From Ginglymostoma cirratum (taxonomy: Eukaryota): 64,000 bases of DNA. A program made the translations under genes and the position numbers. The notes beneath the pieces are model-generated. The model was not told where the DNA came from. It saw only the letters and a list, made by a program, of their open reading frames with translations, and ran no database searches. Below are positions 8,516 to 53,195 of the stretch, piece by piece. Numbering within the stretch: position 1 is the stretch's first letter; each line of letters opens with the position of its first letter. Location: assembly GCA_024137785.1 (NCBI GenBank), contig JAHRHZ010000107.1, positions 248,001-312,000 of the forward strand, written 5' to 3'.

Positions 8516-8699
8516 TGCCCTCTTTTGCTTGTTCTCACAACTACGTAATCTACAGTGTTATGAAAATCCCATGATATAGCATTAATTCAATTTTCAAGTT
8601 CACTTAGTCTGATGTGTCACATTCTTCATGATTGCAGTATTGTGGTATTGCAGAAACTTTGTCGATCTGACTAATTTTATATCCATCCATTTTTTTCAG

Positions 8700-13039: not shown

Positions 13040-13178
13040 AAATCCAAACATTCCGAAAAGGGTTCACTGGACACGAAATTTTAACTCTGTTTTATCTCCA
13101 CAGATGCTGACAGACCTGCTGAGGTTTTTATTAGGCATTTCTGGTTTCTTGTTTGTTTGTTTTGTTTCTGATTTACAG
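13040..13178 (+). mobile_element. Penelope-like terminal repeat fragment with degenerate hammerhead motif, split by a solo LTR (resumes ~13883-13908)
   Basis: ccgaaaagggttcactggacacgaaattttaactctg...cacagatgctgacagacctgctgag; same family as 27034, 29760 and 53097. Confidence 0.7.
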
Positions 13179-13882
13179 TGAGATGTTATTGAGATAACAT
13201 TTCTATATTCTCTATACTTTAATGCTCTTTATCTGCTTACACAGAGGTATACAGAGGTATACAGACACTGCCTTAGAACTTCCTGCCTGACTAGAATTAG
13301 GTATAAACTTTGTAAATCTTTATCTTGCTGCCTAGGGCTATGTGGAAACTGTCTCAAATAAGATTAGGTGGGAAGCGTTTGTAAAGGTGTGAGACTTCTA
13401 AAATCCTGTAAAGTATGTAGCTTCTGTTTCTGCTAAAGGGGCCAGGGCACTGACTTTTGTTCAAGCCAGACACCTCGGCGGCTTGAAATTTCATTCTGTC
13501 ACTTCGGCAACTTGAAAGCGCCTCCTGTCGTTAGCAGTCACTTCGCGAACGATCAATACTGTATCCTGCTCTCTTTATGTTTTCGATGTGTAATTGTCTT
13601 TGTATCATGTCATTGTCCGATGCAGTGATTGTTTCGTGTGTCGTGCCATTGTGAGATGTAAAATTGCTTTATGTATAATGCACTCGATAAGGTATAAAAA
13701 GCGGGGACTGTCGGCTGCTCAGGAAGAATCGCTTACGACACTCTGCACTCTGTGCCGGGTTGAGTAGAGTGATCCTCCACGGCTTGTACTTGCTTTGTAA
13801 TAAAAGACTTGTGTTTTTCTAAACAGGTCAGTGCCTTGTTATTGCATCAAGTCCGTGAGGGTCTCCGAAAACGAACCTAATA
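13179..13882 (+). mobile_element. Solo LTR (~700 bp) in the IgNAR TM1-TM2 intron
   Basis: Starts TG; TATAAAAA at 13693; AATAAA at 13799; ~29-bp internal direct repeats at ~13471-13530; imperfect 4-bp TSD acag/aaag; interrupts the PLE terminal sequence atttacag|catc. Confidence 0.6.
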
Positions 13883-14662
13883 AAAGCATCACCAGTCCGT
13901 TGGTTTCAATGGTTGATGAACATGTTTTGTCTGAGAAATGAGGCATTCCTGCAGTCCAGCTGTACTCTCGGCAAGTAGGTCAAAAACTCATTTCACAACA
14001 CATTCGATTGAAATAGAGTAGTTGCTTCATAGTTTTTTTTTTATTTGAAAATGTCCAAGGAGCATGCAAAAGTCATATTGTAATTTTTAATTTTAATCTC
14101 TTGTATGTTAAACAGTCTCACAAAGACTTAGATAGGTTTTTCCAGGATTTCCAGCTCTAACTTTGGAAATTTGATATGCAATAGTGTAATTGTATATTCA
14201 TTATTGGATCTGACTTTTTGTAGAGTAATACCTGTATTATCATGACTGCCTTATATGATGCAGGGTGAGCTGCTACATTTTTTTTCATGAGCAGCCTCTG
14301 AAACATGTTATCCTCCAGCACTACTGAAACCACAATCACTTTGTCAACTGCACCCATAGTTTTCATTGAAGCAATTTCAAGTAACAGGGCAATTGTAGGA
14401 TGATGATGTAGAGTGAATCGGGGCTCCATTCATCTTTCTGCAAATCCAATTTGCTCCTTGTCCTTTTCGTATTTGAAGAAATACTTAACCAGTCGGATGC
14501 TGCCTGAGCATGGTCTGTTGCCAATCATTTCCAGACCATAAACTGTACCGCCTTATTTCACAATTACAGTAAACCAATTGTTTTTTTTTGTGTGTGTTCT
14601 TCAGAATATTCGGTGTTTTTATACATCTTACTCTGATAATCTTTGGGATTTTTCCCCTGCAG

Positions 14663-14671
14663 GTGAACTGA
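14663..14671 (+). CDS. IgNAR: IgNAR TM exon 2 (cytoplasmic tail VN-stop), followed by 3' UTR
   Basis: Strong acceptor tttttcccctgcag|GTG AAC TGA gives a K-V-N tail after TM1, as in short IgH cytoplasmic tails. AATAAA at 14962-14967. Confidence 0.7.
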   Translation: MN

Positions 14672-14961
14672 CGAAAACTGTTGAAGACGATTACTTCCCA
14701 TTTCATGGAAAGTTTGTGAATGAAGCTCCATCATATGCGGATCACAAATGGTGTTGAGTTGACTTTCCCTCTCAACCGCTGCGGCTGCTTTACAACATTA
14801 CTTCAGCTTGTATTCCTATGCAGTCTCAACTAAGCTATGAAAACTGTTTGGACCGTTTCAACGTTTAGAGTTTGCCTTTACTTTTTTCTTTGTTACACGT
14901 TGCTGTAAGATAAATTTCATGTAACTGCTACAAACTAAGGAAATCCCACTTCACGAATTAA

Positions 14962-14967
14962 AATAAA
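14962..14967 (+). promoter_or_regulatory. Putative poly(A) signal of the IgNAR membrane-form transcript
   Basis: AATAAA about 290 nt after the TM2 stop. Confidence 0.45.
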
Positions 14968-15600
14968 CTGAAGAAAAATTTTGAAAAGTTGCCATGATTC
15001 AGCAATATCTTGAAAGAAGGGAAGTGTATGTTATGTCACACGCTTTTTAGAGAAATGTTCAAGATGTCTTTGAGAATAGTAACCAGAGAAACCTTCCTAT
15101 CTGATCCAGGAGGCATGAAACGAAGGATATAACTCTTCCCAAATAACATTGGAAAGGTAAAAGCTGACTTATTTCATAAAAGATCCAGTCATTGCTATAA
15201 TAATAAAGTGTATTGCAATATCCAAAAATAGCGGTTCAAATGCTTGGAAACGAAACTAAAAGTGCAAACATTAATTTTGTAACTGATGTTATTAATAATC
15301 TAACTGCATGAGCTGATGATTTCCTCTCTTCACGATTTTTATTTGCCAAACATTCAGGCTATCAGATCTGAACGTGAGTAATAGTTTCGTTTCCTACACC
15401 GAACACAGGAAATGTTTGAGAATATCACTATATACAGAACACAAAGAACACTTAATACAATGTCATCCCCCCTCTAATGTGGATAACAGAACTGCACAGC
15501 GTACTCTGGTTGTGTTCCAGCCAATACATTGTACAGTTCTAGCATATTCCCCTAGCTCTTAAAGTCTATGCTTTGGGGATTTTTTTTTTCCACTAGAGTG

Positions 15601-16850
15601 TAAGAACAAAGAACAAAGAAAATTACAGCACAGGAACAGGCCCTTCGGCCCTCCAAGCCTGTGCCGATCAAGATCCTCTATCTAAACCTGTCACCTATTT
15701 TCCAAGGATTTGTATCCCTCAGCTACCTGCACACTCATGTATCTGTGTAGATACATCTTAAATGATGCTATGGTGCCCGCCTCGACCACCTCCGCTGGCA
15801 ACACATTCCAGACACCCACCACCCTCTGTGTAAAGAACTTTCCATGGATATCTCCCTTAAACTTTTCCCCTCTCACCTTGAAATCGTGACCCCTAGTAAT
15901 TGAGTCCCCCACTCTGGGAAAGAGCTTCGTGGTATCCACCCTGTCTATACCTCTCATGACTTTGTAAACCTCAATCAGGTCTCCCCTCAACCTCCATCTT
16001 TCTAATGTAAATGATCCTAATCTACTCAACCTCTCTTCATAGCTAACGCCCTTCATACCAGGCAACATCCTGGTGAACCTCCTCTGCACCCTCTCCAAAG
16101 CATCCACATCCTTTTGGTAACGCTGCGACCAGAACTGTACGCAGTATTCCAAATGTGGTCGAACCAAAGTCCTAAACAACTGTAACATGACCTGCCAACT
16201 CTTGTACTCAATACCCCGTCCAGTGAATGAAAGCATGCCGTATGTCTTCTTGACCATTCTATCGACCTGTGTTGCCACCTTCAGGATACAATGGACCTGA
16301 ACGCCCAGATCTTTCTGTGCACGAATTTTCCCCAGGGCTTTTCCATTTACTGTATAGTTCGCTCTTGAATTGGATCTTATAAAATGCATCACCTCGCATT
16401 TGCCTGGATAGAACTCCATCTGCCATTTCTCCGCCCAACTCTCCAATCTATCTATATTCCTCTTCATTCTCCGACCGTCCCCTTCACTATCTGCTACTCC
16501 ACTAATCTTAGTGTCATCTGCAAACTTGCTAATCGGACCATCTATACCTTCCTCCAGATCATTTATGTACATCATTTATGTAAACGACAGTGGTCCCAAC
16601 ACGGATCCCTGTGGAACACCACGGGTCACAGTTCTCTATTTTGAGAAACTCCCTTCCACTACAACTCTTTGTCTCCTGTTGCCCAGCCAGTTCTCTATCC
16701 ATCAAGCTAGTACACCCTGGACCCCAAACGACTTCAATTTCTGCATCAGTCTACCATGGGGAACCTGATCAAATGCCTTACCGAAGTCCATGTCTATGAC
16801 ATCTATAGCCCTTCCCTCATCTATCAACTTTGTCATTTCCTCAAAGAATT
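15601..16850 (-). mobile_element. Young 5'-truncated CR1 LINE, with 294-aa RT C-terminal ORF (15691-16575)
   Basis: YINDL, KFADDTK, RPHLEYCVQFWS motifs; 3' microsatellite tail (aagaaca)n on +; inserted into an older + strand CR1. Confidence 0.95.
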
Positions 16851-16854
16851 CTAT

Positions 16855-17255
16855 AAAGTGGGTAAAACTTTGAGGCGTGACCTTATTGGGGTTTATAAAA
16901 TCATCAGGGATATAGATAAGGGAAATGGCAAGTGCATTTTCCCTAGGGTGGGGGATTTCAAGACTAGGGCTCATATTTTTAAGGTGACAGACGAAAGATT
17001 AAAAAATACATGACGGTAATCTTTCTACACAGAGTGTGGTTCATTTGTGAATAAACTTCCAGAGCAAGTGCAGGATGTGAGTATGGTTATATTGTTTAAA
17101 AGACATTTGAATAGGCACACGAACAAAAAAAAAAGTTGCAGGGATACAGGCCAAGCGCAAGCAGATGGGACTAGTTTAGTTTGGGATTATGGGCAGCATG
17201 GACTGGTTGGACAGAATGGGTATGTTTCCTATGGGTATGACTCCCTGACTGTATG
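16855..17255 (+). mobile_element. CR1 3' fragment (its left part lies at ~15572-15600)
   Basis: LRRDLIGVYKIIRDIDK...FPRVG; continues the GLFSLE-like sequence left of the 15601 insertion. Confidence 0.8.
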
Positions 17256-20802: not shown

Positions 20803-21788
20803 TAATAGATGATTTGGAGTTGGGGACTAAGTGTGGTGTGTCAAAATTTTGCAGATGACACGAAGGTGAGTGGTAGAGCAAAGAGCGCAGAGGACACTGA
20901 AAGTCTGCAGAGGGATATAGATAGTCTAAATGAGTGGGCAAAGGACTGGCAGATGGAATACAATGTTGATAAGTGTGAGGTCATCCATTTTGGTAGGAAT
21001 AACAGGAAAATGGACTATGTTTTAAATGGTAAAAAATTGCAGCACTTTGCTGTGCAGAGGGACTTGGGTGTCCTTGTGCATGAATTGCTAAAAGTAGGAT
21101 TGCAGGTTCAGCAGGTAATTAAAAAGGCAAATGGAATTTTGTCTGTCATTGCTGGAGGGATGGAGTTTAAAAACAGGGAGGCGATGCTGCACCTGTATAG
21201 AGGCCTGGTGAGGCCACACCTGGAGTACTGTGTGCAGTTTTGGTCTCCTTACTTGAGAGGAGATATACTAGCTTTGGAGGGGATGCAGAGGAGATTCACT
21301 CGGTTGATTCCAGAGCTAAGAGGGTTGGATTATGAGGAGGGACTGAGTAGACTGGGATTCTACACATTGGAATTCGGAAGCATGAGGGGAAATCTTATAA
21401 AAACATATAAAATTATGAAGGGAATAGATGAGGTGGAGGCAGGGAGGTTGGTTCCGCGAGCAGGTGAAACTAGGATTAGAGGGCATCATCTCAAAATAAA
21501 GGGAAGCAGATGTAGGACTGAGGTCAGGAGGAACTTCTTCACCCAAAGGGTTGTGAATCTTTGGAATTCCCTGCCCAGTGAAACAGTTGAAGCTACCTCG
21601 CTGAACGTTTTAAGTCAAGGCTAGATAAATTTTTGAACAGTAAAGGAATTAAGGGTAATGGTGAGTGGGCGGGTAAGTGGAGCTGAGTCTCAAAAAGATT
21701 AGCCATGAACTTATTAAATGGTGGGGCGGAGTCGAGGGGCCAGATGGCCTACTCCTGCTCCTAATTCTTGTGTTCTTATGTTCTTATG
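20803..21788 (+). mobile_element. CR1 LINE nested in the Gypsy gag
   Basis: ORF 20809-21624 (FADDTK, RPHLEYCVQFWSP), (ttcttatg)n tail, TSD taataaa at 20796-20802 / 21789-21795. Confidence 0.93.
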
Positions 21789-24700
21789 TAATAAACGTAG
21801 CTTACCACAGGGTAAAAAGAAACCGATGAGGGAGAAAGAGAAGTTAAGAAAAAAACCTCAGCTGTTTTCACTGCAATAAAGTAAGCCACAGCAAGTTGCA
21901 GTGTTGGTGGTTTAGCATAAGCATTCAGAAGACGGATGTCGTGAAATAGGTTTATCGAGTGAATTTTGTTGAAATGATGAAGTAAAGCACAGTGGCAGCT
22001 AAAACGCTAAACCAGATTGTAAAACCTGGTGAGGAATTGTTTGAAAGAAAGCCCCAGATCTTCTTAAACTAGTCACTTGCGAGGGTGAGGTTCACTCACA
22101 TATACCAGGAGGAGCAGCTAAATAGATTGCAATTTACAGAGATGCGGGCGAATGTCAATCTTTGATGTTGAGAGATGAGGATATACGCAATTCAGAAAGG
22201 CTATTGCCAGAAAATTTAGTAATATATGGAATTCATGATCAGGCAAGGAGTGCTCCATTAAGTAAAGTGATGTTGAAGTGTCCGCTGAATTGTGGAGAAG
22301 TGGTGGCAGGAGAACTGGAGGAACTCTTGGCTCTAGGAGTACAATTTGTCCTCAGTGATGATATAGCTGGATCACAAATGAGAGTGCTGCCTACCTTGGT
22401 TGAAAAGCCAGTAGAAAATCAGGCACCTGAGGTATTACAAGACGTGTATTTTGGGATTTGCCTTACTGTTAGATAACAAGGCCACAAAGTCAATAGTTGA
22501 GACAAGAGGAGAAATCAAAGAACACAATAAGGAAGTTGACGTAAAATTAATCAGAAACAATGTTTGATCAAATGGTTGAGACAAAAAAAGCAAGAACAGT
22601 TGGAGTCCAAAGTGGATATTTCTAGTTCAGGGAAATTAACTTACAACAGAAAGATTAAAAACTGAAGCAGTTGTATGAAAAGGTGTACACAGAAGAATTT
22701 GAGCGCATCCCAGAACTGTTACTGTCTTAAAAATTAGGTCTACATGAGAAAATGATGACCATCACATATTCATGCCGATGAGAAATGGACAGAAGTTCAT
22801 CAAGTTGTGTTACTGATGGTTTGTAAAAAAAGAAGGTGTAGTGTGTAGCATATGAATTACTAGTAGCAGGTTACTTGGGAGTAAACAAAACTCAAGCCAG
22901 AAAACAAAAACATTTTTACTGAACTGGATTGCCGAAGAATGCAGTTAAATTTTGCCAGACATGCCATACGTGTCATGTAATTGGGAAAGCTCAGGCAGTG
23001 AAAACACCAGCACTTTAAATACACATTACATCATTTGAGGACATTTTTAGAGTGGTCTTAATTGATTGTGTAGGACCTTTACGCAAAACAAAAATAGGGA
23101 ATGATATTTGTAGATATATCCATTGGATTTCCATAGACCATTCCGTTATATGTAATGTCACAACTAAAAGGATTGTAGTAAAGTTACTCAAATTTTTCAG
23201 TCGATACGGACTACCCAAAGAGACACAATCATATCAAGGGTCAAATTTTACATCAAAATTATACATCAAAGTTATGGGCTAGATTAGGAATAAAACAATT
23301 CAAATGCCCTGTGTACCATCCAGAATCGCAGAGAGCGTTAGAACGGCGGCATCAAATTTTAAACAGTGTTAAGGCCTTATAGTCAAGACTATCCCAGGAT
23401 TGGTACAAAGAAATTCCATTTGTACGTTTTGCAATTAGAAGTGCACCAATTAAATCTACTAAATTCAGTCCATTTGAATTCATTCTTGCCATGAAGTGAG
23501 AGCAACACTGAAATTAATTAAAAAGAAATTCTCAGGGTTCAGAGGCAATATATATGGATTATGTGTCAAATATTACAGAACGATTGCATAGAGTAGGTGA
23601 GTCGCCTAGACTGCATTTCAAAGTAGCGCAACACGCAATGAAACAGGAAGCAAACAAGAAATCAAAAATTGGTAATTTTGCTGGTGGATTTAAAATGTTA
23701 TTGTTACTTCCAGTGATAGTAAGGTTTAGTGGACATTATCAAATCGAAAGGAGATTGAGTGAGGTGAATTATTTGATACCAACGCCAGGTAGAAAGAAAT
23801 ATCACACAGTGAACCATGTGAATATGCTCAAAAGCTATTGTGATATAGAAGGAAAGCAAGAGGAGAATCTTTCACAGGTTACAAAAGAGAGCGAACAACC
23901 AAGTTCAGAGGATTCAAATTAAATTGGAAAAGGTTCTCTAAAATTGGGAGAAATTATTGTGGAGTTCACCCACAGCTTTGGTGCTAAAGCACGATATTCC
24001 AAGACTTGTACGTGCACTATCGCAAAGTCAGTGCAGTTATAAAGTGTGATTAATATTCTATTACACGTGTGGAAGACTGTATTGAGAAGGCCGAACAAGT
24101 AATGTATATTTCTAAGTTGGATTTACTCAGAGGATACTAGCAGAGGATCAGAGGATACCTTTATCCAAAAGGTTTGAAAGGAGCTTTGGTTTTCGTGAGT
24201 CTGAATGGTCTCTACCAATTTAGTATGAAAAATGTGCCAGCTACATTTCAAAGACTAACTAATAAAGTCATTTCTGGATTACTCAATTTTTTGGAGGACA
24301 CCAATAACGTGGTGATAACTAAGCACGCATGAACGTAACATTTCCCGCATCTATCAAATTGTTTTGTTTGCCCTCGGGAGGCAAGCTCAGTAATAAATCC
24401 GGCTAAGTGTGAATTCACAAAAGCCCATGTCACGTTCCTTGGTAATGTTATTGGATATGGACAGTCGGCTTCATGGGATGTGAAAACAAAGGTTATTGGG
24501 CAGTTTCCCATACTATCTACGAAGAGGGGTTTGCTGTGTTTTTGGGATTGAGAAGGTTTTGTCAAATGTTCATAACGAACTTTAGCAGTGTAGTTGCACC
24601 ATTGACTCACTTTGTGAAGAACTGCAGAAACTTTCCTTGGACGACAGACTGTCAGAAGTCATTTGACAGCCTGAAAACTGTGTTAACCATTGCCCCAGTG

Positions 24701-26889: not shown

Positions 26890-27130
26890 CGAGTAGTCTT
26901 CACCATCCTTAAGCCGAATAGTCTGTCTAACTGTTCTTCTCTCTCTTTGGGTTATCCCAGCTATTGTTTACTCCTTATCCCTCCCGTCACCTTATTTTCT
27001 GCGTATAAACTGACATTTTCCTTAGCTACTATCAAGTCTAAGGAAGGGTCACTGGACCCGAAGCATTAACTCTGATTTTTCTTCTCAGATGCTACCAGAC
27101 CTATGAGCTTTTCCAGCAGCTTCTGTTTTT
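26890..27130 (+). mobile_element. Penelope-like element 3' terminus with degenerate hammerhead motif
   Basis: ctaagga agggtc actg gaccc gaag cattaact at 27038-27071, followed by cagatgctaccagacctatgagcttttccagc. Confidence 0.7.
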
Positions 27131-27139
27131 ATTCATTAT

Positions 27140-28510: not shown

Positions 28511-29658
28511 GTTCCACACGCCATTATCCCTTCTTGTATAGCCCTTCCTTTTTACTGCTACATACTTTTGCTGAGCACTGTGAAAAATCGCTTTCAAACC
28601 CTCCACTGTTCCTCAATTGTCCCAAAATATAGTCTTTGCTCCAAGTCTGCCTTAGCTAACTTCTCCCTCATCCCACTGTAGTCTTCTTTATTTAAGCACA
28701 AGATACTGGTACCAGATTTTACCTTCTCACTCTCCATCTGTATTTTACATTCAACCATACTATGATTGCTCCTTTCGAGATGGTCCCTAACTATGAGACC
28801 ATCAATTTTTCCTGTCTCATTACACAGGACCAGATCTAGAATAGTTTGCTCCATAGTGGGCTCCATGACATAATATTCGAGGAAACTATCATGGATATAT
28901 TCAATGAACTCCTCCTCAAGTCTGCCTTGACCGATTCGGTTTAACCAATCAATTTGTAGATTAAAATCCCCATGATAATTGCCCTACCGTTTTTACACGT
29001 GTCAATTATTTATTTGTTTATTGCCCATCCACTGTGATGTTATTATTTTGTCGCCTATAAACTACGCCTCACAAAGAATTTTTCCACTTACTATTTGTAA
29101 TTAATAAGTATATTGATTCTTTTTTATCCATAGAGTCTTTACCATCTCGCACTACCACTCTGATGTTATCCTTAAGTGTCAGAGCTACAATGCCTCCCTT
29201 TGCTTCCTGTCTGTCCTTCCGAATAATCTGATACCTCTGCATATTTAAATCCCAGTTGTGAACACGCTGCCACCATGTCTCTGTAATAGCCACTAAATTA
29301 TACCTGCTCTGGATGATTTGTGCCTTCAACTCATTTCCTTTGTTTCGAATGCTGACAACGTTCATGTGAAGTGCCTTTATATTAGTTTTTATACCTTCTT
29401 TTTGAATTCTAATACTTCCACCAGGAGAACTTGTTTTTTAAATATTCTCACATTTTCTGTCACTACCTTATTTCCACCCATCTTAATTCTACACTGCTCA
29501 GTTGCTTCTTACTTTTTATTTACTGGATTGATTCTCTTTTTCCTTAAGCCTTCACCCACTCTCGCTAACTCAGAGATCCTCCTTAGATTCTCATTCCCCT
29601 GCCAAACTAGTTTGAAATTCACCCACCAGAGCTAGTAAAACAACCCGCAAAAATATTG

Positions 29659-29899
29659 CATAAAAACCGAAAGAACTGCGGGTGCTGTAAATCAGGAACA
29701 AAAACAAAGTTGCTGGAAAAGCTCAGCAGGTCTGGCAGCATCTGTGAAGGAGAAAACAGAGTTAACGTCTTGGGTCCGGTGACCCTTCCTCCGACCCTTC
29801 CTGAGGTCACCAGAACAGAAACGTTAATTCTCTTTTCTCCTTCACAGATGCTGCCAGGCCAGACCTGCTGAGCTTTTCCAGAAACTTTGTTTTTATTCT
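29659..29899. mobile_element. Short palindromic Penelope-derived insertion (two inverted termini with hammerhead-like motifs), 12-bp TSD
   Basis: Arms ~29695-29790 and ~29805-29899 are reverse complements; gcaaaaatattg at 29647-29658 and 29900-29911. Confidence 0.85.
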
Positions 29900-30221
29900 G
29901 CAAAAATATTGGTCTCGTCACTGTTTGGGTGATGTATTGGCATCCAAGAACCCCCACAAGTTACAGGTGAAGCGTCCCTCTTACATAGGTCCCAGCTTCA
30001 TTATAAATAGTCCCAGTTATTCCGTTTTCCAAAGGTCAACCTCTTACACCACTCCCCTAGTCATGTATTAAACTGCTGAATCTGCCAATGCCCAGCATCA
30101 CTAGCACGTGGCACAGGTAGTAATCTGGAGATTTATGGTCCTGGCTTTCAGTCTGGTTCCTAACTCCCTAAACTCAGCCTTCAGGACCTCATCCCTCTTC
30201 CAACCTATGTCGTTGGTACCA

Positions 30222-33460: not shown

Positions 33461-33697
33461 GAACATGTCAGTCGGGAATCCTGAGTGTGATTCATGCCAA
33501 ATTCTTGCTTTTTAGTCTGCGGCCTTGCAAGCCAAAACACAAGGGCTCTCTCAGAAACTGCTTCCTCCCACAAACCGTCCAGGATACGTGCACATATTTG
33601 AAACACTTAAAATGTGGTGTCCCAAAATGACAGGGAAATACTTTTCCAGAAAAAGGCTCCTCAACCAGGGTAAATTTGGCAATGGGTCTCTGTTCAA
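33461..33697. repeat. 237-bp local duplication, copy 1 (copy 2 at 34859-35095)
   Basis: Only 4 mismatches by eye between the copies. Confidence 0.95.
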
Positions 33698-38000: not shown

Positions 38001-38119
38001 AAGAACCCGTTAGGCGTTTTTAGCCTAATAATACTCTATTTTCTACCTCTGAAGGCAGGAGGTTCTCCACTATTGATTATGTTTAATGGTCAAATGAGCT
38101 ATTTTATTGTCTCTTGAGA

Positions 38120-38900: not shown

Positions 38901-38934
38901 CGTATGAATCAAGGATTAGAAAGCGTCCTGTCAA

Positions 38935-41900
38935 GATACATGAAAGCAGGATATGGCAACTCCTCTTCCAAAGACCACAAGAGGATCGTGAACAGAACCC
39001 AGTCCATCATGCAAACAAGCCTTCCAACCATTGCCTCCATCTATACTACCTGCTGCCTAGGGAACATAGAACAAAGAACAATACAGCGCAGAACAGGCCC
39101 TTCGGCCCTCGATGTTGCATCGACCTGTGAATTAATCTAAGCCCATCCCCCTACACTATCCCATCATCATCCATATGCTTATCCAAGGACTGTTTAAATG
39201 CCCCTAATGTGGCTGAGTTAACTACATTTGCAGGCAGGGCATTCCACGTCCTTATCACTCTCTGAGTAAAGAATCTGCCTCTGACATCTGTCTTAAATCT
39301 ATCACCCCTCAATTTGCAGCTATGCCCCCTCGTACAAGCCGATGTCATCATCCTAGGAAAAAGACTCTCACTGTCCACCCTATCTAATCCTCTGATCATC
39401 TTGTATGTCTCTATTAAATCCCCTCTTAGCCTTCTTCTCGCCAATGAGAACAGACCCAAGTCCCTCAGCCTTTCCTGATAAGACCTTCGCTCCAGACCAG
39501 GAAACATCCAGGTAAATCTCCTCTGCACCTTTTCCAACTCTTCCACATCCTTCCTGTACCGGGGCGACCAGAACTGCACGCAATATTCCAAGTGAGGTCG
39601 CACTTTGTATTGTACAGTTGCAGCATGACATCACGGCTCTGGAACTCAATCCCTCTACCAATGAAACCTTACATACCGTATGCCTTCTTAACAGCACCAT
39701 CAACCTGGGTGACAACTTTCAGGGATCTATGTACCTGGACACAAAGATCCCTCTGCACATCCACACTACCAAGAATCTTTCCATTGACCCAGTATTCTGC
39801 CTTCCTATTATTCTTCCCAAAGTGAATCACCACACGTTTATCTGCATTAAACTCCATTTGCCACCTTTCAGCCCAATTCTGCAGTTTATCCAAGTCTTCC
39901 CGCAACCTGCAACATTCTTCCACACTTTCCACCACTCCACCGGCTTTAGTGGCATCTGCAAACTTACTAACCCATCCACCTATGCCTGCGTCCAAGTCAT
40001 TGATAAAAATGACAAACAGCAGTGGTCCCAAAACAGATCCTTGGGGCACACCACTAGTAACCGGACTCCAGGCTAAATATTTTCCATCAACCACCACGCG
40101 TTGCCTTCTTTCAGAAAGCCAGTTTCTAATTCAAACTGCTGAATCTCCCTCAATCCCAAGCCTCCGCATTTTCTCCAATAGCCTACCATGTGGAACCTTA
40201 TCAAAGGCTTTACTGAAATTCATGTGCACCACGTCAACTGCCCTACCCTCATCCACATGCTTGGTCACCTTCTCAAAAAACTCAGTGAGGTTTGTGAGAC
40301 ACGACTTGCCCTTGACGAATCCATGTTGACTATCTCCAATCAAATTGTTGCTTGCTAGATGATTATAAATCCTATCTCTTATAATCCTTTCCAAAACTTT
40401 TCCTACAACAGACACAAGGCTCACTGGTCTGTAATTACCTGGGTCATCTCTACTGCCCTTCTTGAACAAGGGCAGAACATTTGCAATCCTCCAGTCCTCT
40501 GGTACTAAACCTGTAGACAATGACGACTCAAAGATCAAGGCCAAAGGCTCCGCCATCTCCTCCCGAGCTTCCCAGAGAATCCTCGGAAAAATCCCATCCG
40601 GCCCAGGGTATTTATCTACCTTCACACCTTCTAGAATTGATAACACCTCCTCCTTACTAACCTCAATCCTTTCAAGTCTAATAGCCCGTATCTCAGTCTT
40701 CTCCTCTACAATATTCTCCTTTTCCTGAGTGAAAACAGATGAGACATATTCATTTAGCACCTCTCCAATCTCCACAGGGTCCACACACAACTTCCCACTT
40801 CTGTCTTTGACTGGCCCTATTCTTACCCTAGTCATCCTTTTATTCCTCACATACCTACAGAAAGCTTTAGGGTTCTCTTTTATTCTACCTGCTAATGACT
40901 TCTCAAGCCCCCTCCTTGCTCTTCTTAACTCTCTCTTTAAATCCTTTCTAGCTAATCTGTAACTCTCCATCGCCTCATCTGAACCAACTCGTCTCAATGT
41001 CACATAAGCCTCCCCCTTCCACTTAACAAGAGATACAATTTCTTTCGTAAACCAAGGTTCCCTTACCTTATCACTTCCTCCCTGCCTGACAGGGACATAC
41101 CTATCAAGGACACGCAATATCTGCTCCTTAAACCAGCTCCACATTTCGATTGTCCCCATCGCCTGCATTTTGCTACCCCATTCTATCCCTCCTAAGTCTT
41201 GCCTAATCGCACTTCCCCCATCTATAAATCTTGCCCAGTGGCATGTTCTTATCCCTTTCCATCGCTAAACTAAACGTGACCGAATTATGGTCACTCTCTC
41301 CAAAGTGCTCACCTACCACTAAATCAAACACCTGGCCTGGTTCATGACCAAGTACCAGATCCAGTGTGGCCTCTCCACTTGTCGGCCCTTTGACATACTG
41401 TGTCAGGAAAGCCTCCTGCACACATTGGACAAAAACTGATCCATCCGACGTACTAGAGTTATAACATTTCCACTCAATGTTGGGGAAGTTAAAGTCTCCC
41501 ATAATGACCACCCTGTTCCTTTCACTCCTGCCCAGAATCGTTTTGCCAATCCTCTCCTCCACATCCCTGGAACTTTGCGGAGGCCTATAAAAAGCTCCCA
41601 GCAGTGTGACCTCTCCTCTCCTGTTTCTGACCTCAGCCCATACCACCTCAGTCGACGAGTCCTCGTCAAAAGTTCTTTCAGCCACCGTTATACTGTCCTT
41701 GACTAACAAAGCCACACCTCCCCCTCTTTTACCACCTTCTCTGATCTTTATGAAAGATCTAAACCCTGGAATCTACAACATCCATTCCTGACCTTGCTCT
41801 ATCCATGTCTCTGAAGTGGCCACAACATCGAAGTCCCAAGCACCTATCCACGCTGCAAGCTCACCTACCTTATTCCGGATACTCCTGGCGTTGAAGTAGA

Positions 41901-43218
41901 CACACTTCAAACCAGCTTGCTGTCTGCCAGCACAATCCTGTGACGGTGAAATCCTGTCCATGTCCTCCCTACTCTCATCCTCCTGTGTACTGGAACTACA
42001 CCACAGGTTCCCGTCCCCCTGCTGAGCTAGTTTAAATCCACCCGAATAGCACTAGCAAATTTCCCACCCAGGATATTAGTACCCCTCTGGTTCAAGTGAA
42101 GACCGTCCTGTTTGTAGAGGTCCCACCTTCTCTAGAATAAGCCCAATTATCCATATACCTGAAACCCTCCCTCTTGCACCATCCCTGCAGCCACGTGTTC
42201 AGCTGATATCTCTCCCTGTTCTTCGCCTCGCTGTCACATGGCACGGGTAACAAACCAGAGATAACAACTCTGTTTGTTCTAGCTCTCAGCTTCCACCGTA
42301 GCTCCCTGAAATCCTGCCTTACGTTCCTATCCCTCTTTCTACCTATGTCGTTGGTACCTATGTGGACCACGATTTGGGGCTGATCACCCTCTCCCTTCAG
42401 GACCCCAAAGACACGATCCGAGACATCACGGACCCTGGCACCTGAGAGGCAACACACCAACCGTGAGTCTCTTTCGTTCCCAACAAACCTTTTATCTGAC
42501 CCTCTAACTATTGAGACCCCAATGACTAACACTCTCCTCCTTTCCCCCCTTCCCTTCTGTGCAAGAGGGACAGACTCTGTGCCAGAGACCTGCACCCAGT
42601 GCATGCCCCCGGTAAGTCGTACCCCCAACAGTATCCAAAATGGTATACTTGTTTTTCAGGGGAACGACCACAGGGGATCCCTGCACTGACTGTTTTTCCC
42701 CCCTTCTAACAGTTACCCAGCTTCCTTCGTGCCTAGGAGTAACTACATCCCTGTAACCCTTATCTATCACAGACTCTGCCTCCCGAATGATCTGAAGTTC
42801 ATCCAGCTCCCGCTCCAGTTCCCTAACACGGTCTTGGAGGAGCAAGAGTTGGGTGCACTTCCTGCAGCAGCAACATCATCAAAAATGCTTTCACCCTGGC
42901 TATACTATCTTCAACCCTTTTTCATTGGGCAGAATGCATTAAAAAATTATACGATTCTGTACAAACACATTCGAGGACAGCTTCTTCCCCGCTGTTTTCA
43001 AATTTTTGAACAGATCTCTCTGATGTTAATTGTGATCTGTCTCTCTCTGTCTCTCTCTCTCTCTGTGCACCAACTCTCAGTCTGTAACATTGCATTCTGA
43101 ACTATTTTCTGCTACCCTGGTGTGCTTTAATTGGTACAATCTGCCTAGTAGCACGAAAAACAACAATTTTCACTGTTTTGAAACACATGACAAAAATAAA
43201 TCGATCGATCAATCAATT
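38935..43218 (+). mobile_element. Rex1/Babar-type non-LTR element 3' end, split by the CR1 at 39062-42866
   Basis: Left part GYGNSSSKDHKRIVNRTQSIMQTSLPTIASIYTTCCLG; right part (42866 onward) NIIK..HPGYTIFNP...DSFFPAVF..LN; tail ending (tcaa/tcga)n. Confidence 0.7.
39062..42866 (-). mobile_element. Near full-length young CR1 LINE (partial ORF1 with SGNH esterase, ORF2 APE+RT broken by a few stops/frameshifts)
   Basis: ORFs 42504-42845, 42092-42628 (VIGVSIVRG, VHIGTND), 41773-41961 and 41203-41715 (APE: NARSIRNK, YRPP, MGDFN, SDH), 40131-41168, 39669-40097 and 39151-39603 (RT). Confidence 0.96.
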
Positions 43219-44340: not shown

Positions 44341-45242
44341 TCATTTACTTAATTTACTCAATAGATTCAGGGGATATTTCACTGCACTTTTTATCTGCTC
44401 CCTGAATTTTCTCTGTGTCACTGAATAAATAAATGTGTTTGTGCAGCAACTAAGCATCTGCAACATGTTTGCACTTTCTTGCAGAATAAATTTGGGGTCA
44501 CTGAAGCCTTTCATTTTGTAATTACTTGTAAATCTGTCATAAAAGAACTGTGCAACGTAAGCCATCCACAAAAGGATGAAACTTCCAGAGATAGCAAAAA
44601 GTAAAACAATGGACTTTCTCCTGTTCTCCATTTCTGGGTCATTTGGATTTTCTTTCTTATTCTGCGCCCGGAGTCTCCTACGGGCAGTACTGCTCACGAC
44701 AATATGCCTGACGGTCAGAGCATTGAACAAAAGAATCAGAAGGAACGCGAGGCATGGCGTCAAAATACGGTCAGACCAATCAAACACTGTCCACACTGTT
44801 GAAGTATAACGAATTTTCTTCTGTCGGCAGTACCAGGGTACATTATCAATTACATAGATAGGTTCATGTATAAAGTACCAGGGAACACTTTTCAAACATC
44901 CCAGGGCACAAAGAAATCCTATAACAAACCCTGCACTTTTTTCAGTGCAATATTTTGATTTCAGCTTCTGGCAACAAATAGCCACAAATTGATCAAAGGT
45001 GAAAGCCACCGTTAACCAGACGGAACTGTCTCTGGTTGCGTGAATCAATGCAATGCTGAGACTACAAACAGGAGTAATGAACAGAAAACTACCAGGTGAA
45101 TAAATGCCAGGAATACGATTCATTACCACTGCAGTAATAATGACCAGGAGATCCATCACTGCCATGGACAACAAGTACTGAGTGATACATCGAGAGAGGC
45201 CACATCTTCCTTGGGACAGGATTACAATCGCCACTAAATTAA
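44341..45242 (-). CDS. GPR139-like class A GPCR, exon 2 (TM1-TM7); spliced CDS about 323 aa
   Basis: Acceptor ttttcctctcttgcag|TT AAT TTA GTG; seven hydrophobic segments, AVMDLL, VWLTVAFTFDQFVAIC, DPEMENRRKSIVLLF, SCCTNTFIYSVTQRKFR, typical of the shark-expanded GPR139/142-like family. Confidence 0.9.
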
Positions 45243-45570
45243 CTGCAAGAGAGGAAAAATATCACATGATACACTTCCAGCAGTAGCAATACGTAAAGTT
45301 TCTAGCTGCGAAATTTGAAGTGAAGAGGATTGTTTTACTTCAAGCTTCTGGTGAAATAAGCCAAAACATCAAACGGTATGATTGTTATTCTTATACAGCA
45401 TAAAAATATGAATAATGAATGTATTCAGATTTACATTGGTTAATTATTCAACAAATTAACAACGGGTTTAAATTTAAATAAGTTTAAATTCATAACAAGC
45501 AAAAATGGAAATGACTGGAGGACCTCAGCAGGTCTGACAGAATTTGTGGACAGTGAAGTGATGTGGACAA

Positions 45571-45932
45571 GGGAGGTGATGGCCAAGTGGCATTATCGCT
45601 AGACTGTTTATCCAGAGATCCAGATAATGTTCTGGGGATCCGGGTCAAATCCTGCCACTACGGATGGTGGAATTTGGACTCAATAAATATATGGAATTAA
45701 GAGCCTAATGATGACCGTGAATCCATTGTCGATTGTTGGAAAAACCCATCTGGTTCACTAATATCCTTTAGGGAAGGAAACTGCGATCCTCACCTGGTGT
45801 GGCCTACATGTTACTCCAGACCCACAGCAATGTGGTTGACTCTGAACTGCCCTCTGGGCAATTAGGGATGGGCAGTAAGTGCTGCCTGGTCAGTGACACC
45901 CTCATCCCATGAATGAATGAATAAAAAAAAAA
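45571..45932 (+). mobile_element. tRNA-derived SINE with LINE-derived tail ending (atga)n-A; inserted in a minus-strand PLE terminus (~45495-45972)
   Basis: A-box-like tggccaagtgg, B-box-like gggtcaaatcc, body ctggttcactaatatcctttagggaagg...gggcaattagggatggg...catcccatgaatgaatga. Confidence 0.8.
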
Positions 45933-47923
45933 CGTAGGGTTAACTTTGGAGTCCACTGACTCTAATCAGAACATTCTTCTGAAAGTAATATTTCAATGAA
46001 TGAAACACATTTAACATACATTTATGACAGTTCAACAGCTGACAGACCTTTGAAAGAATTAAGCCATTGTTCCTTGGCTGCTGCCAACAGATTTTGTGAA
46101 TGTTGTCTGAGAAACTAGAAACTACTTTGCAGTTGGCCTGCTACTGACAATGTTACACATGAAAAAAAATTGTTCGAATATCCAAGATTTTGGACAATCT
46201 TCTTCAATGTTGTCATTAACTTGCATCTAATGTCTAACTGGGACACTGATTGAAAACGTTTCATGTAAGACCTATTCGTTTCATGAGGCAACACCTCCTC
46301 AAAACTGAATATGAGCATACTTCTAAGAAAACCCTCCATTCCAAGGCAGAAGCAAATGCAGACCTTTATAAAGTTGGTAAGGTAAACCACATATCTTTTG
46401 AATTATGGCTTAAAATGTACACGTGAGCAAATTGATTAGTTTATCGTATTAAGGAAAACGATTTTTGAATATAAAGGATGAATACATAGGCCATGATATG
46501 TGGCTCAGGTTGCAAACGACAAAGGAGAGTTAAAAGTGGAAAGCCCATCTGCGCAAGTATTTGAATAAATCTTTAGGACATAGTCTCTAGCGTGAGAAAT
46601 TTTCAGCAGATAAGCATAAGTGGAAATCTTCGAAGAGAAATGAGAAAAAAAAACTAGGGCATCTGGGAGCCTGAGATGTATTTTTCTAGGAAATGGTTAA
46701 ATAATGATTACAGTCTGTTATTCTACTGTAATTAATGTTTTGATATTTAATTTGCCATGAATAATTCCAAGCATGAAAAACAGAATCAAATTTCAACATG
46801 TCAATGTTTTGCATCAGCAATTGTTTATTTTTGATATATCTAAGAAGACAGCAGAGTATTTAATAACTTGAACCACAGAACTACAACAAGCCCTTCTGAA
46901 TCCAAGGCTCTCGATAATTTTTTTATGAAGTCCAATGCATTTAATGTCAATGAGGAAAAATTAGCAATTGCACGTCAATCATAGATAGATGACCGTTACC
47001 CATGTGTTTCCATGTTATTCCAACAATCATGTCTATTAAGTAATGAATTGTTACTTTCACATGCTGTGCTTAATGCTGGAGACCAGGTTGCACATCTTCA
47101 TCTTACATTCACATTCCTAATACTTCTGTTGTTTCCTGGTGGTGTTACTATTGATGAGACGGACAGTTACTAAATTTTACAAAATCCTGGAGTTAACTGC
47201 TTATTGATAGACAATGAACAAGATAATTACAGGTGAACAGGGGCAGTCTGCCCAATCCTTGGATTCTGTTCTGCTGCTGAATTACACACTGTATGTCTGG
47301 AAAACTCTATTTCACCAGCCCAGATCTCAGATCCACATCTATTGTCACCAAAAAAGAATCAAGCGATATTTAATATTTTAACTTGAACTTCAGCCTCAGT
47401 TGCACAACTGTGGCAGACCAGGTAAAGAGAACACTTCTTATGAAGATGTGTGTCATGAGATAATGACTCGATGCCTGAACTCGAATTTTAAGGCAATGGA
47501 GTCTTATTCTGGGATATCCACCAAAATAATCGTATTTCTTTCTTCATGCATCCTCCTTGTTGTCCGAATGTTGTTAACCATGATTTTTGCATTCAAAATA
47601 TCTCTGGGATTGGCAAACATGCACAGGAGAGAACTGCCTCAGCTGGTACAGATATTCAATCGGTAATGCTGACGTTAATTTGCAACAGGTTCTCCCATCC
47701 AGCCATAAACTAACTGACACCCAAATGATAACATTCATCTAAGCCCAATAATTCAAATCATGTTTATTGAACTTTTACTCATAGATTAGTCCTCTAATCT
47801 CTGGATCATTCCAGTGAATAATTCCCCGCAAGTTGCATAATCAGAGCTGAATGCTAGAGCATAAGTATTGAAATAAAAACTGACGTTCAATCAAAAAATG
47901 ACTGATTTGCTGCAACACTTTAC

Positions 47924-47993
47924 CTGGAACTGCGATTGCTGCAAGGACCGTGTAGTAAATTGCATATATCAAGCCTCTTGGTGGAGCATGCAT
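47924..47993 (-). CDS. GPR139-like GPCR exon 1
   Basis: ATG...MHAPPRGLIYAIYYTVLAAIAVP G|gtaaag; the phase-1 donor joins exon 2 in frame to give ...IAVPVNLVAIVILS. Confidence 0.85.
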
Positions 47994-50280
47994 TTCCGAA
48001 TGAGAAGTGACAATGTCTATTCGAAGTGCCACAAGTACTCAGTCGACCATCAGGAGGGTTATTTATTGTAGTTGATGCTAAATACCAAGAGACTCCATTA
48101 ATGTTACTGACAGTCACTGAACAAAACAAGTTAGGTGACACCACCATATACATTGTTTAAAGTCATTGGAGATACAAGTTAGTGTGACTGTTTTTATCTT
48201 TACTTCTGAAGTGCTGCATGCACTTAAAGGAATTATTGTTAGAAAAGCTTTTATTTTTCTTACCTGATCTGGCTAACATCTAATGCAAACATTAAACAAA
48301 TCTGTATGATAGATTGGTTCTTAACTGTTCTCTGAAGTGACCATGAAAAACAATCTTTGCTGTCAATCCGGTCAAACAGACTAAAATAAGTCACCATGGA
48401 AACAAAAATGAGACAATAAAGACACAAATGGACACAGATAATGTATTTTTTCCACTTTTAGGAATCTGGCATCAAAGCTAGGGCAGCTGTGTCACATATT
48501 GGAGTAGCAAAAAATGTACATAGGCATATCTTGAGAATAATGCAATGAATCAAAGGTCAATCTCCTCCATCACCATCCTTGGGTATTTCTCGTACCACTA
48601 AAGTAGGAAAACTATGTGAATATAACAGCATATAGCAGGAATTCAAAGTCTTCAAAATCGTCTGCGCACCTTCTCATAGTCCATAGCTTCAAATCGAATA
48701 GGACTATAAACATTTAAAAAGCGAAAATAATCTAATACCATTCTCCAGTTCCTAATCTAATCTCTTCGAAAATAGATGTTTCACAGATTTTAAAATATTG
48801 GTGAATGAAACGAGGGAACAGAAGGAGTAGGCTATTCAGTGAAGTAATATCTGCATTGCCAAAAATGACTTGCTGCTGTTCCCAATGACGAACCAAGCGA
48901 ATCATGAAAGGTATAACTATCAATTTCTGTTTGTGGCAGCCATACAAAGAAATAACTTGAGATTATTGCATGTTTGAACTCTCATCTCTCTATATTAGCA
49001 TTTATGTCAATTCACAAATCTCTCCCTGGGTACCATTCCAATCTTGCCATCTTACTGCCATCTCACTACTTATAGTTACTTTTCTATAATGGTAATTCTC
49101 AACGTAAGTTTTTTTAAGTCTCGAATTCCTCTGTTTCCAATGTTCTGTCGTTTTCCTTTTCTCTGCGTCTGCAACTTTCTCTCTCCTTTCATCAGTGTAT
49201 TTGCAACAAGTCTTTCCTCTATCTCCGTAGGATAAAGCAGAAGCAGGTCACTCAGCCCAACATGGCTGCTCCACCATTCAATTAGGTCATGGTTGATCTG
49301 ATAATCCTCAATTCCACTTTACTGCTGTTCTCACAAAACTCTTGATTTCCTTACAAAGAAAAATCTGTTTATCACAGGGATCCAGCTTCTACAACCCTCT
49401 GCAGTAAGGATTCTACAGATTCATTCCCTTCTGACAGAAGAAATTCGGTTCATATTTATCTTAAAAGGGTGACTCCTTATTTTGTATTTGGAGAGCTATT
49501 AATGTCTTCTACTAAGAAGACTAGTGCAGTGTATTTAGTCAACTCTTCTGACATTTCCTTATGTCCATTATTATTTCCCACCCTTGTTCTCAAAGGCCTG
49601 TTTGAACTTTGGCCTCTGTCCTTATTTTTGTATGCAGAAACGGCCTGCACGTGTATCTGAAGCGACGTGAATGTTGTGAGCACTGTACAACCAATGACCG
49701 GAACAATTTCAGTGAATATGCTTTAAAGAAGTTCATTGATTCTGCTGCTGAAGATGTTTGCGTCGTGGAAATCCTAAAGAAGTAATGTGAAATCAGCTGT
49801 TGCTTTTTCTCAATGGATGTCAATCCCAGACACTGCTGAAGTCAATTCTATTGACTGTGTTTGGGAAATAGAGCAATGAAGTCAGATCCAAACTGACCAG
49901 TGAATAAGGAAGGGGCATATTGGTCTTATATAGAGTGCAGCATAGAAATACCAGTATTATATCAAAGTTGATGTTCGGAAGAAATATTGCACGACATTTT
50001 TATGAAACCTCCAATAAGCAGGATAGGGAATTATTTGGTCGATGAGTTCTATATAAGGGAACACGGAAGTTAGATGGTGGTAGTTCCGTACTGCAGCACG
50101 TAGATGAACATGATTAAGTTAACTCTTAAGGCACAGTTGAAGTTACAAATACTTCAAAATATATTCAAAATTTTTAATACAAGTACAAGAGTCTGACAAT
50201 GTTCATTCTGCCTTCTTAGAAATCCACAATGCCTCTTTCTACTGTCACTTTTTTACTAATTCATTAAGGAACCACTTTTT

Positions 50281-50595
50281 CCATAGAGAATCCCTACAGC
50301 GTAGAAACAGGCCCTTCGGCCCAACAAGTCCACACTGAACCTCAGAGCATCCCACCCAGACCCACCCCACCAACCCTACACCTCCCTGAACACTACGGGC
50401 AATTTAGCATGGCCAATCCGCCTAAACTGCACATCTTTTGGACTGTGGGAGGAAACCGGAGCACCCGGAGGAAACCCGCGCAGACACGGGGAGAATATGC
50501 AAACTCCAAACACACAGACGCCCGAGGCGGGAATCGAACTCTGTCCCTGGCGCTGTGAGGGAGCAGTGCTAACCACTGAGCCACCGTGCCGCCCC
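50281..50595 (-). mobile_element. HE1 (V-SINE) element, well preserved
   Basis: Reverse complement begins gggcggcacggtggctcagtggttagcactgc; V-domain ...ggagtttgcatattctccccgtgtctgcgcgggtttcctccgggtgctccggtttcctcccac. Confidence 0.92.
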
Positions 50596-51124
50596 AAACG
50601 CTGATTGTAAACATATGTATTCAGGTACTGTTAAATGTTAATCGTATTACTTTTGTTCGATATTTCTCCAACTGGCAAATTAAACACTCGTGCAATATAT
50701 TATTCGCTGATGTTCTATCCTTATTCATAATAGCCGTTGTGTTCTGCATTGCATGTACGCGGATGATCGATTTTTAGGCATTGATAATTATTTGAAGATG
50801 TCAGAAGACATCAAGTGCTGAAAAATGAAAAGGACTTGGACTTGGGATTCTTTCTTTCAAAAGATTGAAGTTAATGCTTTCAACGTTATATGCTATCTTC
50901 CTGTTCAGGGCGCACTAGAAAGTGATAGGTTCGAGTTAGCCTGGAGTTTTTTTTTAACTACTTCTTTTTCTTTATTTCAGAAACCAGGGTCAGGAATATT
51001 GAACATTTGTGCTCCAGAACCCGTCACGACCTTCGCCAAGAAAGGTATAGCTATAACATTGGCAACTACCATGTGTTGTGGATGTTTGAGAAGATATACC
51101 TTGTCAACAAACAGGGGGATAATT

Positions 51125-51465
51125 CGAATCATAGAATCCCTGAAGTGCAGAACCAGGACATTTGGCTCAACAAGTCCACATCGCCCTTCCAAAGAGCATC
51201 CCAGACAGACCCATTCCGCTACCCCTGCATTTCCCATGTCTAACCCACCTAACCGAAACATCCCTGAGGGCTATGGGCAACTTAGCATGGCCAATCCACC
51301 TACCTTGCAAATCTTTGGACTGTGGGAGGAAACCAGAGCACCTGGGGGAAACACACACAGACACGGGGAGAATGTGCAAACTCCACACAGACAGCTGCCC
51401 GAGGTGGGATTGAACCCAAGTCCCTGGCACTGCGAGGCAGCAGTGTTAATCCTTGATCCACCGTG
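51125..51465 (-). mobile_element. HE1 SINE
   Basis: Colinear with 50281-50595. Confidence 0.88.
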
Positions 51466-51479
51466 TAGAAAGGAAAAGG

Positions 51480-53195
51480 ACAAGCAAACGAAGAGGTAGC
51501 TGATGATAAGTTGAGAGAGACATGAATGCTAGGTAGGGTGCGAATGAGAAGTGTGAATACTTGAAAAGGGTTCGACTGTGCAGGACCTCTGTGGGGATGG
51601 GGCTGGTTGTGGGAGGGTTGAATAACCAAACTGAGGAGGGTGATCACGTTCTGAAATTCGTCACTTCTTCCAAGTCAAAGGAGTGGTTATGTGCACCAGC
51701 ATGCATCCCAGTTATGCCTGCATCTTTGTAGCCTTTGTGGAACAATCCTTATTCCAGTCCCTCACTGTGTCCGTCCCACAACATTTTCTTCCGTATATCA
51801 ATGTCTGTTTCAGGGCTGCTTCACACTCCTACCCGGACCTTGAAACATTTGTTCATTTTGCGTCCAATTTCTCCCCTCTCTAACTTTCACATCGTCCGTT
51901 TCCAACACTTCCCTTCCTTTCTTTGACCTCTCCATCTCCATTTCGGGAAATAAACTATCCACTGCTATCCATTACAAAGCCACAACTCCCAAAACTTCCT
52001 TCACTAAACTCTTCTCACCCTACATCCTGCAAAGATTCCATTCCATTCTCCCAGTTCCTTTGCATACATCGTATCTGTTCAGATGATGTCAACTTTCAAC
52101 ACAACGATACTGATATGACTTCCTTCTTCCATAACTGTGGTTTCCCGCCCACTGTGGTTGACAGGGCCCTCAGTTGCACTTGACTTACCACCCGTGCTTC
52201 CGCGCTTGCCATTTCCCATCACTCGCAACAGCGTGATTGGGTCCCCCTTGTCATGCCACTTTTGATCCCACCAGCCCCCGCAATCAAGATCATTCTCCGC
52301 TATTTCAGGCAACTTCAGGAAACCACCTTCACCAAACACATGTTTCCGTCACTTCCCCATCTGCATTTCTCAGGGATATCTCCCTCTGGGACGCCCCAGT
52401 CCATTCTTCGAACACCAACCCAATCCTCTCTTCACAAGGCACCTTCCCACATAACCACAGAAGGTGCAACATCTGTTCATTTAGCTCCTCCCTGCTCACC
52501 ATCCAAGGGCATAAACAGTCTTTCCAGGTGAAGCAGCATTTTGCCTGTACCTCCTCCAATCTTGTGTATTACATCTGCTGCATCCAATGTGGCCTTCTCT
52601 ACATTGGAGAAACCAAACGTACTCTGGGTGACTGCTTTGCAAAACACCTCCAGTCAGTGCAGGAGTATCACCTCGACCTTCCCATAGCCATTCACTTTAA
52701 CACAGCATCCTACTCGCTTGCAAATTTGTCTGTCCTCAGCATGCTATAATGCTCCAGCAAATCACCGCAAAAACTGGAGGATCAACATCTCATCTTCAAA
52801 TTAGGCTGTTTACAACCTTCTGGGCTCAATATTGAGTCCAACGCCGTCAGTTTATGAGCCCATTACTTCCTTTTCTTTCAGCTTTGCTTGTTACATTCTC
52901 TGTCACTATGTCCTCTCTCCACTCCCCAGTGGGATTAACTGTTCTTTCCAACCTGGCAGTTAGACACACAATTGTTCTGCTTTTCTCACATTCCAATCAT
53001 GTAATCTGAACAATCAACATCCTTTCTCCCTCAGCAATCCAACCACCACACCACCCCCACTCTTGCCAAAATGCTGCCCCCTCCACATTTCACTTCAGCT
53101 CTGATAAAGAGTCGTTTAGACTCGAAATGTTAGCTTCCTTTCTCTCTGTGGATGTTGCCTAACCTGTTGTGACCTCCAGCATTTTCGTTTTCAGC
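51480..53195 (+). mobile_element. Penelope-like retroelement (RT C-terminal half + GIY-YIG endonuclease + terminal repeat), decayed; 5' ~180 bp probably inverted
   Basis: QVKGVVMCTSMHPSYACIFV and SSHPTSCKDSIPFSQFLCIHRICSD (PLE RT); CTSSNLVYYICCIQCGLLYIGETKRTLGDCFAKH (GIY-YIG). Confidence 0.9.
53097..53135 (+). ncRNA. Minimal type I hammerhead ribozyme motif (PLE-associated), core partly mutated
   Basis: agct-CTGATAA-a-gagtc-gttta-gactc-GAAA-tgtt-agct: stem I agct/agct, stem II gagtc/gactc, core CUGANGA with G8->A. Confidence 0.7.

Follow-up and report, generated by a model that had tools for sequence, protein, structure and literature searches.

The stretch of DNA analysed here, in the following called the window, comprises 64,000 nucleotides of the Ginglymostoma cirratum genome (assembly GCA_024137785.1, contig JAHRHZ010000107.1, positions 248,001 to 312,000) and carries six hammerhead ribozyme motifs at the ends of Penelope-like elements (PLEs). 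We propose that these motifs are mutated terminal hammerheads of Neptune-type PLEs, likely dead, and that the short copies of the elements probably derive from uncut RNA which starts at the first base of the ribozyme; we put the probability of this reading at about 0.7. The role of hammerheads in PLEs is described as still open in the available text of Craig et al. (2021, PMC8557442). The insertion junctions of this genome, tens of thousands in number, bear on that role, as they favour uncut templates and place the RNA start at the ribozyme.

For the detection of the motifs a profile was built from intact genomic motif copies and run on the window and on the reversed window. Direct reading and the profile search recovered exactly the six motifs that a preliminary description of this DNA had listed, each at its place (Table 1), and the profile found no further one in the window and none in the reversed window. 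The motif at 45972(-) was weak by itself; the downstream half of its leader follows collinearly past a 360-bp repeat insertion. In a self-BLAST the copies at 13051, 27034, 29760(-) and 29800(+) were linked at 73-85% identity. A strict hammerhead descriptor allowing at most one core mismatch gave no match in the window, and an Rfam scan of the window returned no ribozyme and two chance matches to small nucleolar RNAs.

Core damage was scored against the family majority. None of the six window copies has an intact core, just as the preliminary description had noted at least one mismatch in each, and the number of core changes ranges from one to four or more. The best-kept copy is 53097, where G8>A and C15.2>U amount to one essential change and both stems are intact. 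All others carry three or more essential changes: 27034 (G5>A, A15.1>G, G16.2>A), 29794(-) (U4>G, G12>A, A14>G), 13051 (U4>C, G8>A, CG>UU in stem III and a broken stem II) and 45972(-) (G8>U, G12>C, an additional A and loss of C15.2, with stem II still forming 5/5 pairs). The copy at 29800(+) is without a usable first box and has only its GAAACGUU box intact; it belongs to a single head-to-head insertion, of which it forms the truncated right arm, and does not count as a separate motif. We regard the window copies as decayed, likely dead relics of PLE ends. They do not represent the same terminal repeat at all loci, as had been assumed, and instead fall into at least two families, A (13051, 27034, 29760 and 29800) and B (53097). 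The copy at 45972(-) combines a B-type stem II with an A-type stem I and was placed in neither.

Motif families and host element

The genome searched comprises 4.36 Gb. With two window copies as queries 1,784 and 1,336 candidates were obtained, and 40 of each were scored. These matches define family A, with stem I AGUU/AACU and stem II GGGUC/GACCC, and family B, with stem I AGCU/AGCU and stem II GAGUC/GACUC; the majority core is intact in both. The preliminary description had made its proposal depend on an intact CUGANGA/GAAA core in the consensus, and this core is intact in the family majority, while 31 of 68 copies sampled have lost none of the invariant core bases. The structure-descriptor search suggested there, run genome-wide, yielded 11,698 exact intact cores, whereas the reversed control contained 9. 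Because of this excess the family motif is, judged by its sequence, the standard PLE minimal hammerhead. The proposed architecture, a minimal type I hammerhead with a loop-less palindromic stem III at PLE termini, was borne out. Stem III is the palindrome ACGU, which shows CpG decay in the copies. Further families were found in the flanks of the fetched loci, namely D and E, both with a GUC site and E with a stem I mismatch, and a single F copy with a C-G first pair in stem I. An extra base between positions 9 and 10.1 and a G10.1-C11.1 pair are present in families A, B, D and E and in the F copy.

Across five family representatives the core is invariant, and the stems vary. When these representatives are taken together with the six window motifs, 87% of the cells pair and 4 of the 9 pairs are changed on both sides (7 cells); a shuffle control reached this in 33 of 500 cases, a figure that ignores kinship and refers to few, non-independent events. 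The stem covariation claimed earlier between copies is hence real between families and absent among copies of one family: in stem II of family A only one compensatory double change was present in 340 cells. Within-family covariation was accordingly rejected as evidence of selection, and since change within family A is mostly CpG decay (27.6% of CpG sites changed vs 4-6% elsewhere), it is the invariant core across families which supports selection. The core is also slightly better kept than other non-CpG sites (3.7% vs 6.4% changed, p 0.013). This difference was not used, because a match up to +5 was the basis on which copies were chosen and the value for the other sites is inflated by subfamily variants.

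The hammerhead sits in the pseudo-long terminal repeat (pLTR) of a PLE at loci where an open reading frame (ORF) is linked to it, and the family A motif lies downstream of the ORF in 14 of the top 15 protein matches. Open frames among the ORF matches contain DKG, YIDD, a CX4CxxC linker and GIY-YIG. A single ORF with reverse transcriptase (RT) and C-terminal GIY-YIG is thus present in the family; it is broken in the window copy, and no fully open ORF occurred among the 15 + 20 loci examined. The window remnant shows 56% and 49% identity to an open family A ORF, its GIY-YIG domain scores below the Pfam cutoff (E 0.031), the catalytic YIDD has decayed and the first linker Cys is lost. The statement that the 53097 motif directly follows an RT/GIY-YIG ORF needs correction: the motif is located about 240 bp past the stop, and the ORF is a remnant, broken and 5'-truncated. 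Partial tandems, an inverted 5' copy, an optional tail and target duplications are all present in this element. By the definitions in the available parts of PMC8557442 and PMC3846280 the host elements are, on sequence grounds, Neptune/Nematis-type PLEs. The CX2-5CxxC linker is common to both clades (PMC8557442), and the name Neptune was chosen because the linker is present and Neptune is the linker-bearing clade found in vertebrates. A pyrimidine-rich inverted piece at 51470-51640(-) adjoins the 5' end of the ORF remnant and has one weak match in the fetched loci.

Copy ends and the RNA template

In our numbering, +1 is the first base of stem I and the predicted cut lies at +34/+35. The family A unit consists of a TATA-like box, 29 nt, the hammerhead (+1 to +38), a 100-nt leader, the ORF, the 3' untranslated region (UTR) and the next TATA-like box. 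Thirty loci were picked by the 5' end of the ORF, and in 25 of them the leader is joined directly to the ORF. The hammerhead therefore forms the front of the unit, and at the apparent 3' end the next unit begins. Five of these 25 loci start at -1 to +2, 15 reach scattered points upstream and five start within the leader. The TATA-like box precedes +1 by 29 nt in 46/58 long A copies and by 31 nt in 17/34 long B copies, and an initiator-like TCAGTT/TCAGCT lies at +1; the general TATA and initiator consensus served for comparison. As a side observation, a 30-codon upstream ORF in frame with the main ORF begins with an ATG at +57 (L272-L299, e.g., L280:1404-1535 oriented). Its stop lies eight codons before the next ATG; the frame is kept in 18/22 copies and the stop in 17 of those 18. 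The second ATG is preceded by a pyrimidine tract and CAG, possibly an intron acceptor.

An anchor downstream of the cut has 23,771 matches, and the ends of family A copies were mapped on the first 100 of these. Fifty-three copies start in -3 to +5, 22 in +6 to +32, seven in -4 to -20, eight beyond -100 and seven in +38 to +55, two of the last being bounded by N. Only three start in +33 to +37, and none at +35. The 3' ends form two classes, with 39 at +93 to +110 and 58 at +134 to +139, and three lie elsewhere. Genome-wide counts of junction patterns gave 985 at +2, 14 at +33, 14 at +35 and 10 at +37; of the 14 at +35, three are whole motifs into which 2 bases were inserted, and the other 11 are seams to an inverted arm. 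A cleavage footprint in the ends of family A copies was therefore rejected, as no junction excess exists at the cut site. An inverted arm stands at the 5' junction of 40/100 family A copies. Among 37 non-inverted short copies, 15 are flanked by target duplications of at least 7 bp (mean after shuffling 0.5), and family A copies often bear duplications of 8-15 bp. Two further candidate signals were set aside: an excess of G before +2 (51 G, 32 T and 17 C by hand count in the first 100 of the 985 listed) was not used as a copied cap, since an A>G change or microhomology with the inverted arm could also give G, and a splice acceptor at CAG-ATG past the cut site was dropped, the AG being absent in families B and D.

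About half of the family A copies start just before the motif and almost none at the cut site, and for this reason we consider it likely that the ribozyme marks the start of the element RNA and that this RNA is copied without having been cut. Transcription would begin at +1, and the element protein would nick the DNA and prime reverse transcription at +100 or +138, within the leader. Priming on the first leader would run off at the RNA 5' end after 100-140 nt and leave solo stubs; if both strands were primed, a head-to-head pair with a tail on one side would arise, as at 29660-29899. Priming on the second leader would give UTR- or ORF-bearing copies such as 27034 and 53097. The inserted copies would then decay neutrally, fastest at CpG. 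According to the literature, cutting of an intact motif after GUU would require a dimer or help from protein, and insertion would not depend on the cut. A more specific version, which we advance tentatively and think rather unlikely, holds that the first base of the hammerhead is also the capped 5' end of the element RNA and that a dimer-dependent cut at +34 strips the cap from the element's own mRNA when copies of it are abundant. The ribozyme would act as a concentration-sensing brake by which only uncut RNA is translated or copied, and the stubs would record internal priming at +100/+138 with run-off.

Several points weigh against an uncut template starting at +1. The start is read from DNA junctions, and the junction patterns are different strings without denominators, so that 985 vs 14 indicates an order of magnitude and not a rate. 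In family B the peak is weak: 6/30 copies start in -3 to +5, and 12/30 extend upstream by 36 bp or more. By nearest-neighbour folding the family A hammerhead dimer (-16.1 kcal/mol) has no advantage over other dimers (-24.0 kcal/mol). Moreover, RNA which had been cut and religated into a circle would likewise yield copies spanning the cut site.

This last point leads to the model of PMC4209133, in whose available text the ribozyme trims tandem transcripts to unit-length or circular RNA, which would be the real template. The invariance of the core despite variable stems agrees with such processing, religated circles would leave copies across the cut site, and the discussion of that paper also speaks for the model. 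However, junctions show no excess at the cut site, with 0/100 family A copies at +35, and a circle has no 5' end and leaves the start peak at +1 unexplained; we consider it unlikely that processed RNA is the template. The short copies could also form a separate non-autonomous mini-element, similar to a short interspersed nuclear element (SINE) or a retrozyme, with its own master and mobilised in trans. They are commoner than long copies (8/100 run more than 100 bp upstream) and have fixed ends and target duplications, and retrozymes are derived from PLE ends in the accessible part of a recent preprint (bioRxiv 10.64898/2026.07.22.740005). ORF-linked copies, though, start at the same place (5/25) and share both 3' end classes, self-BLAST revealed no tandem arrays in the window, where the copies are dispersed or inverted, and inspection by eye showed no sequence confined to the short copies, which makes an independent mini-element very improbable.

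We give just as little credence to the idea that the motif is kept for promoter function or protein binding and does not cut in the cell. It overlaps the initiator-like site, the junctions contain no cleavage footprint, and families A and B have a GUU site, at which A14 could pair with U17; in the available text, PMC4209133 reports low activity, and PMC11167929 saw no RNA-seq ends there. Nevertheless, families A, B, D and E and one F copy retain every catalytic base, the extra base and G10.1-C11.1, together with compensatory stem changes. That the shared start reflects a splice acceptor (CAG) or stalling of the RT at the hairpin is scarcely credible: CAG and a pyrimidine stretch do precede +3, and in the available text of PMC4209133 a Drosophila Penelope intron ends at helix I, yet a stall is expected on the 3' side of the hairpin, and few ends fall in that interval (+26 to +38), and splicing predicts a common upstream exon, whereas the flanks vary from copy to copy.

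Other features of the window

The 12-mer of the duplication flanking the inverted pair occurs in the window only at 29647 and 29900 (Table 1). Apart from PLE copies, the window contains an immunoglobulin C1-set exon at 241-645(+) (Pfam E 2e-16), closest to immunoglobulin heavy-type constant domains in PDB and with generic immunoglobulin matches that do not point to a shark host, and an intronless frame of 306 aa for a rhodopsin-family G protein-coupled receptor at 44341-45261(-) (Pfam E 8e-19), about 240 bp from the split PLE leader. A nearly full-length remnant of a long interspersed nuclear element (LINE) at 39151-42875(-), which we take to be CR1/L2-like, comprises a GDSL-like ORF1, an apurinic/apyrimidinic endonuclease and an RT. 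Further RT fragments lie at 15691-16575 and 20809-21624, and a C-terminal integrase fragment of a long terminal repeat retrotransposon at 23518-23922(+) (Pfam E 1e-6). Two repeats complete the inventory, a 297-bp inverted pair with 95% identity at 39062-39358 and 59773-60069 and a 237-bp direct pair with 98% identity at 33461/34859.

Table 1. PLE-derived features of the window and, in the last row, hammerheads of further families in fetched loci. Ranges in brackets are the profile matches.
Feature	Position	Strand	Evidence
Decayed family A minimal hammerhead, start of short solo copy reaching ~13178	13049..13086	+	self-BLAST; profile E 1e-12 (13052-13128)
5'-truncated family A end: 3' UTR, TATA-like box, hammerhead, short 3' end near +100	26921..27134	+	profile E 2e-17 (27036-27130); direct reading
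TATA-like box of 27034 copy	27004-27009	+	
Hammerhead of 27034 copy, three core changes	27034-27071	+	
12-bp target-site duplication, left copy, flanking inverted pair	29647..29658	.	12-mer search
Left arm of head-to-head insertion: family A leader and long (+138) tail	29660..29797	-	self-BLAST; profile E 2e-22 (29794-29699)
Hammerhead in left arm of inverted pair	29797-29760	-	
Seam and right arm of inverted pair, truncated within stem II, short end without tail	29798..29899	+	self-BLAST; profile E 3e-15 (29805-29894)
Intact GAAACGUU box in right arm of inverted pair	29818-29825	+	
12-bp target-site duplication, right copy	29900..29911	.	12-mer search
Downstream half of split leader	45494..45556	-	profile E 6e-5 (45556-45502)
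Unrelated abundant 360-bp repeat inserted into split leader	45571..45930	-	72 BLAST pieces in fetched loci, best 85-86%
Heavily decayed hammerhead, 5' half of split leader	45939..45972	-	profile E 0.26 alone (45972-45937)
5'-truncated, frameshifted Neptune-type RT-linker-GIY-YIG ORF remnant	51661..52857	+	identity to open family A ORF
3' UTR of family B copy	52858..53096	+	
Family B minimal hammerhead; element end near 53194	53097..53135	+	profile E 5e-19 (53097-53190)
Hammerheads of families D, E and F	L064:1259-1294, L093:1757-1792, L208:569-604		

Comparison with known systems

Comparisons with the literature refer to the accessible portions of the cited texts. Hammerheads of this kind at PLE ends are already published (PMC4209133). 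The minimal hammerheads described there share with ours the type I topology without a loop III, the palindromic 15.2-16.2, the extra base between 9 and 10.1 and the G10.1-C11.1 pair, and they likewise occur as thousands of mostly single motifs, in opposite-strand pairs and in several families per genome. Stem II is 4-5 bp long here and 7-8 bp in Schistosoma, and the 11,698 exact cores exceed the 4,000-9,000 reported for coelacanth and Xenopus (PMC4209133). No shark is named in the accessible text of that paper or in the supplement file searched. The literature searched, which most subscription papers lie outside, contained no paper specifically on shark PLE hammerheads and nothing direct on a transcription start at a PLE ribozyme. 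Non-LTR retrozymes form tandem arrays of hammerhead-bearing units, whereas the window copies are dispersed or inverted. Small PLE hammerheads reportedly cleave as dimers, going by the title of the work of Lunse and colleagues from 2017, and as far as we know their architecture is the same.

With Neptune-clade endonuclease-positive (EN+) PLEs (Craig et al., 2021, PMC8557442; Arkhipova et al., 2013, PMC3846280) the elements share the C-terminal GIY-YIG and the CX2-5CxxC linker as well as partial tandems, an inverted 5' copy, a one-sided 30-40 bp tail, target duplications, and TATA and initiator-like sites in the pLTR. Neither paper, in its available parts, describes a predominance of 100-140 bp stubs that have a single start in common.

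The closest parallel for the mode of insertion is Poseidon of Anolis carolinensis (PAc; Frangieh et al., 2024, PMC11167929). For this anole PLE, in vitro work reports that two internal start sites make the tail, that ribozyme mutants insert normally and that cleavage needs the protein. PAc resembles our elements in the ribozyme at the front of the unit, the uncut RNA template, the two 3' end classes about 35 nt apart and the priming of both strands. It differs in that a Neptune-type linker is present here and that the ORF starts 147 nt downstream, behind the in-frame 30-codon upstream ORF, and not in stem II. Finally, PMC11167929, as far as its text was available, maps no start site at the ribozyme, whereas the copy ends in Ginglymostoma cirratum suggest that the RNA starts there.

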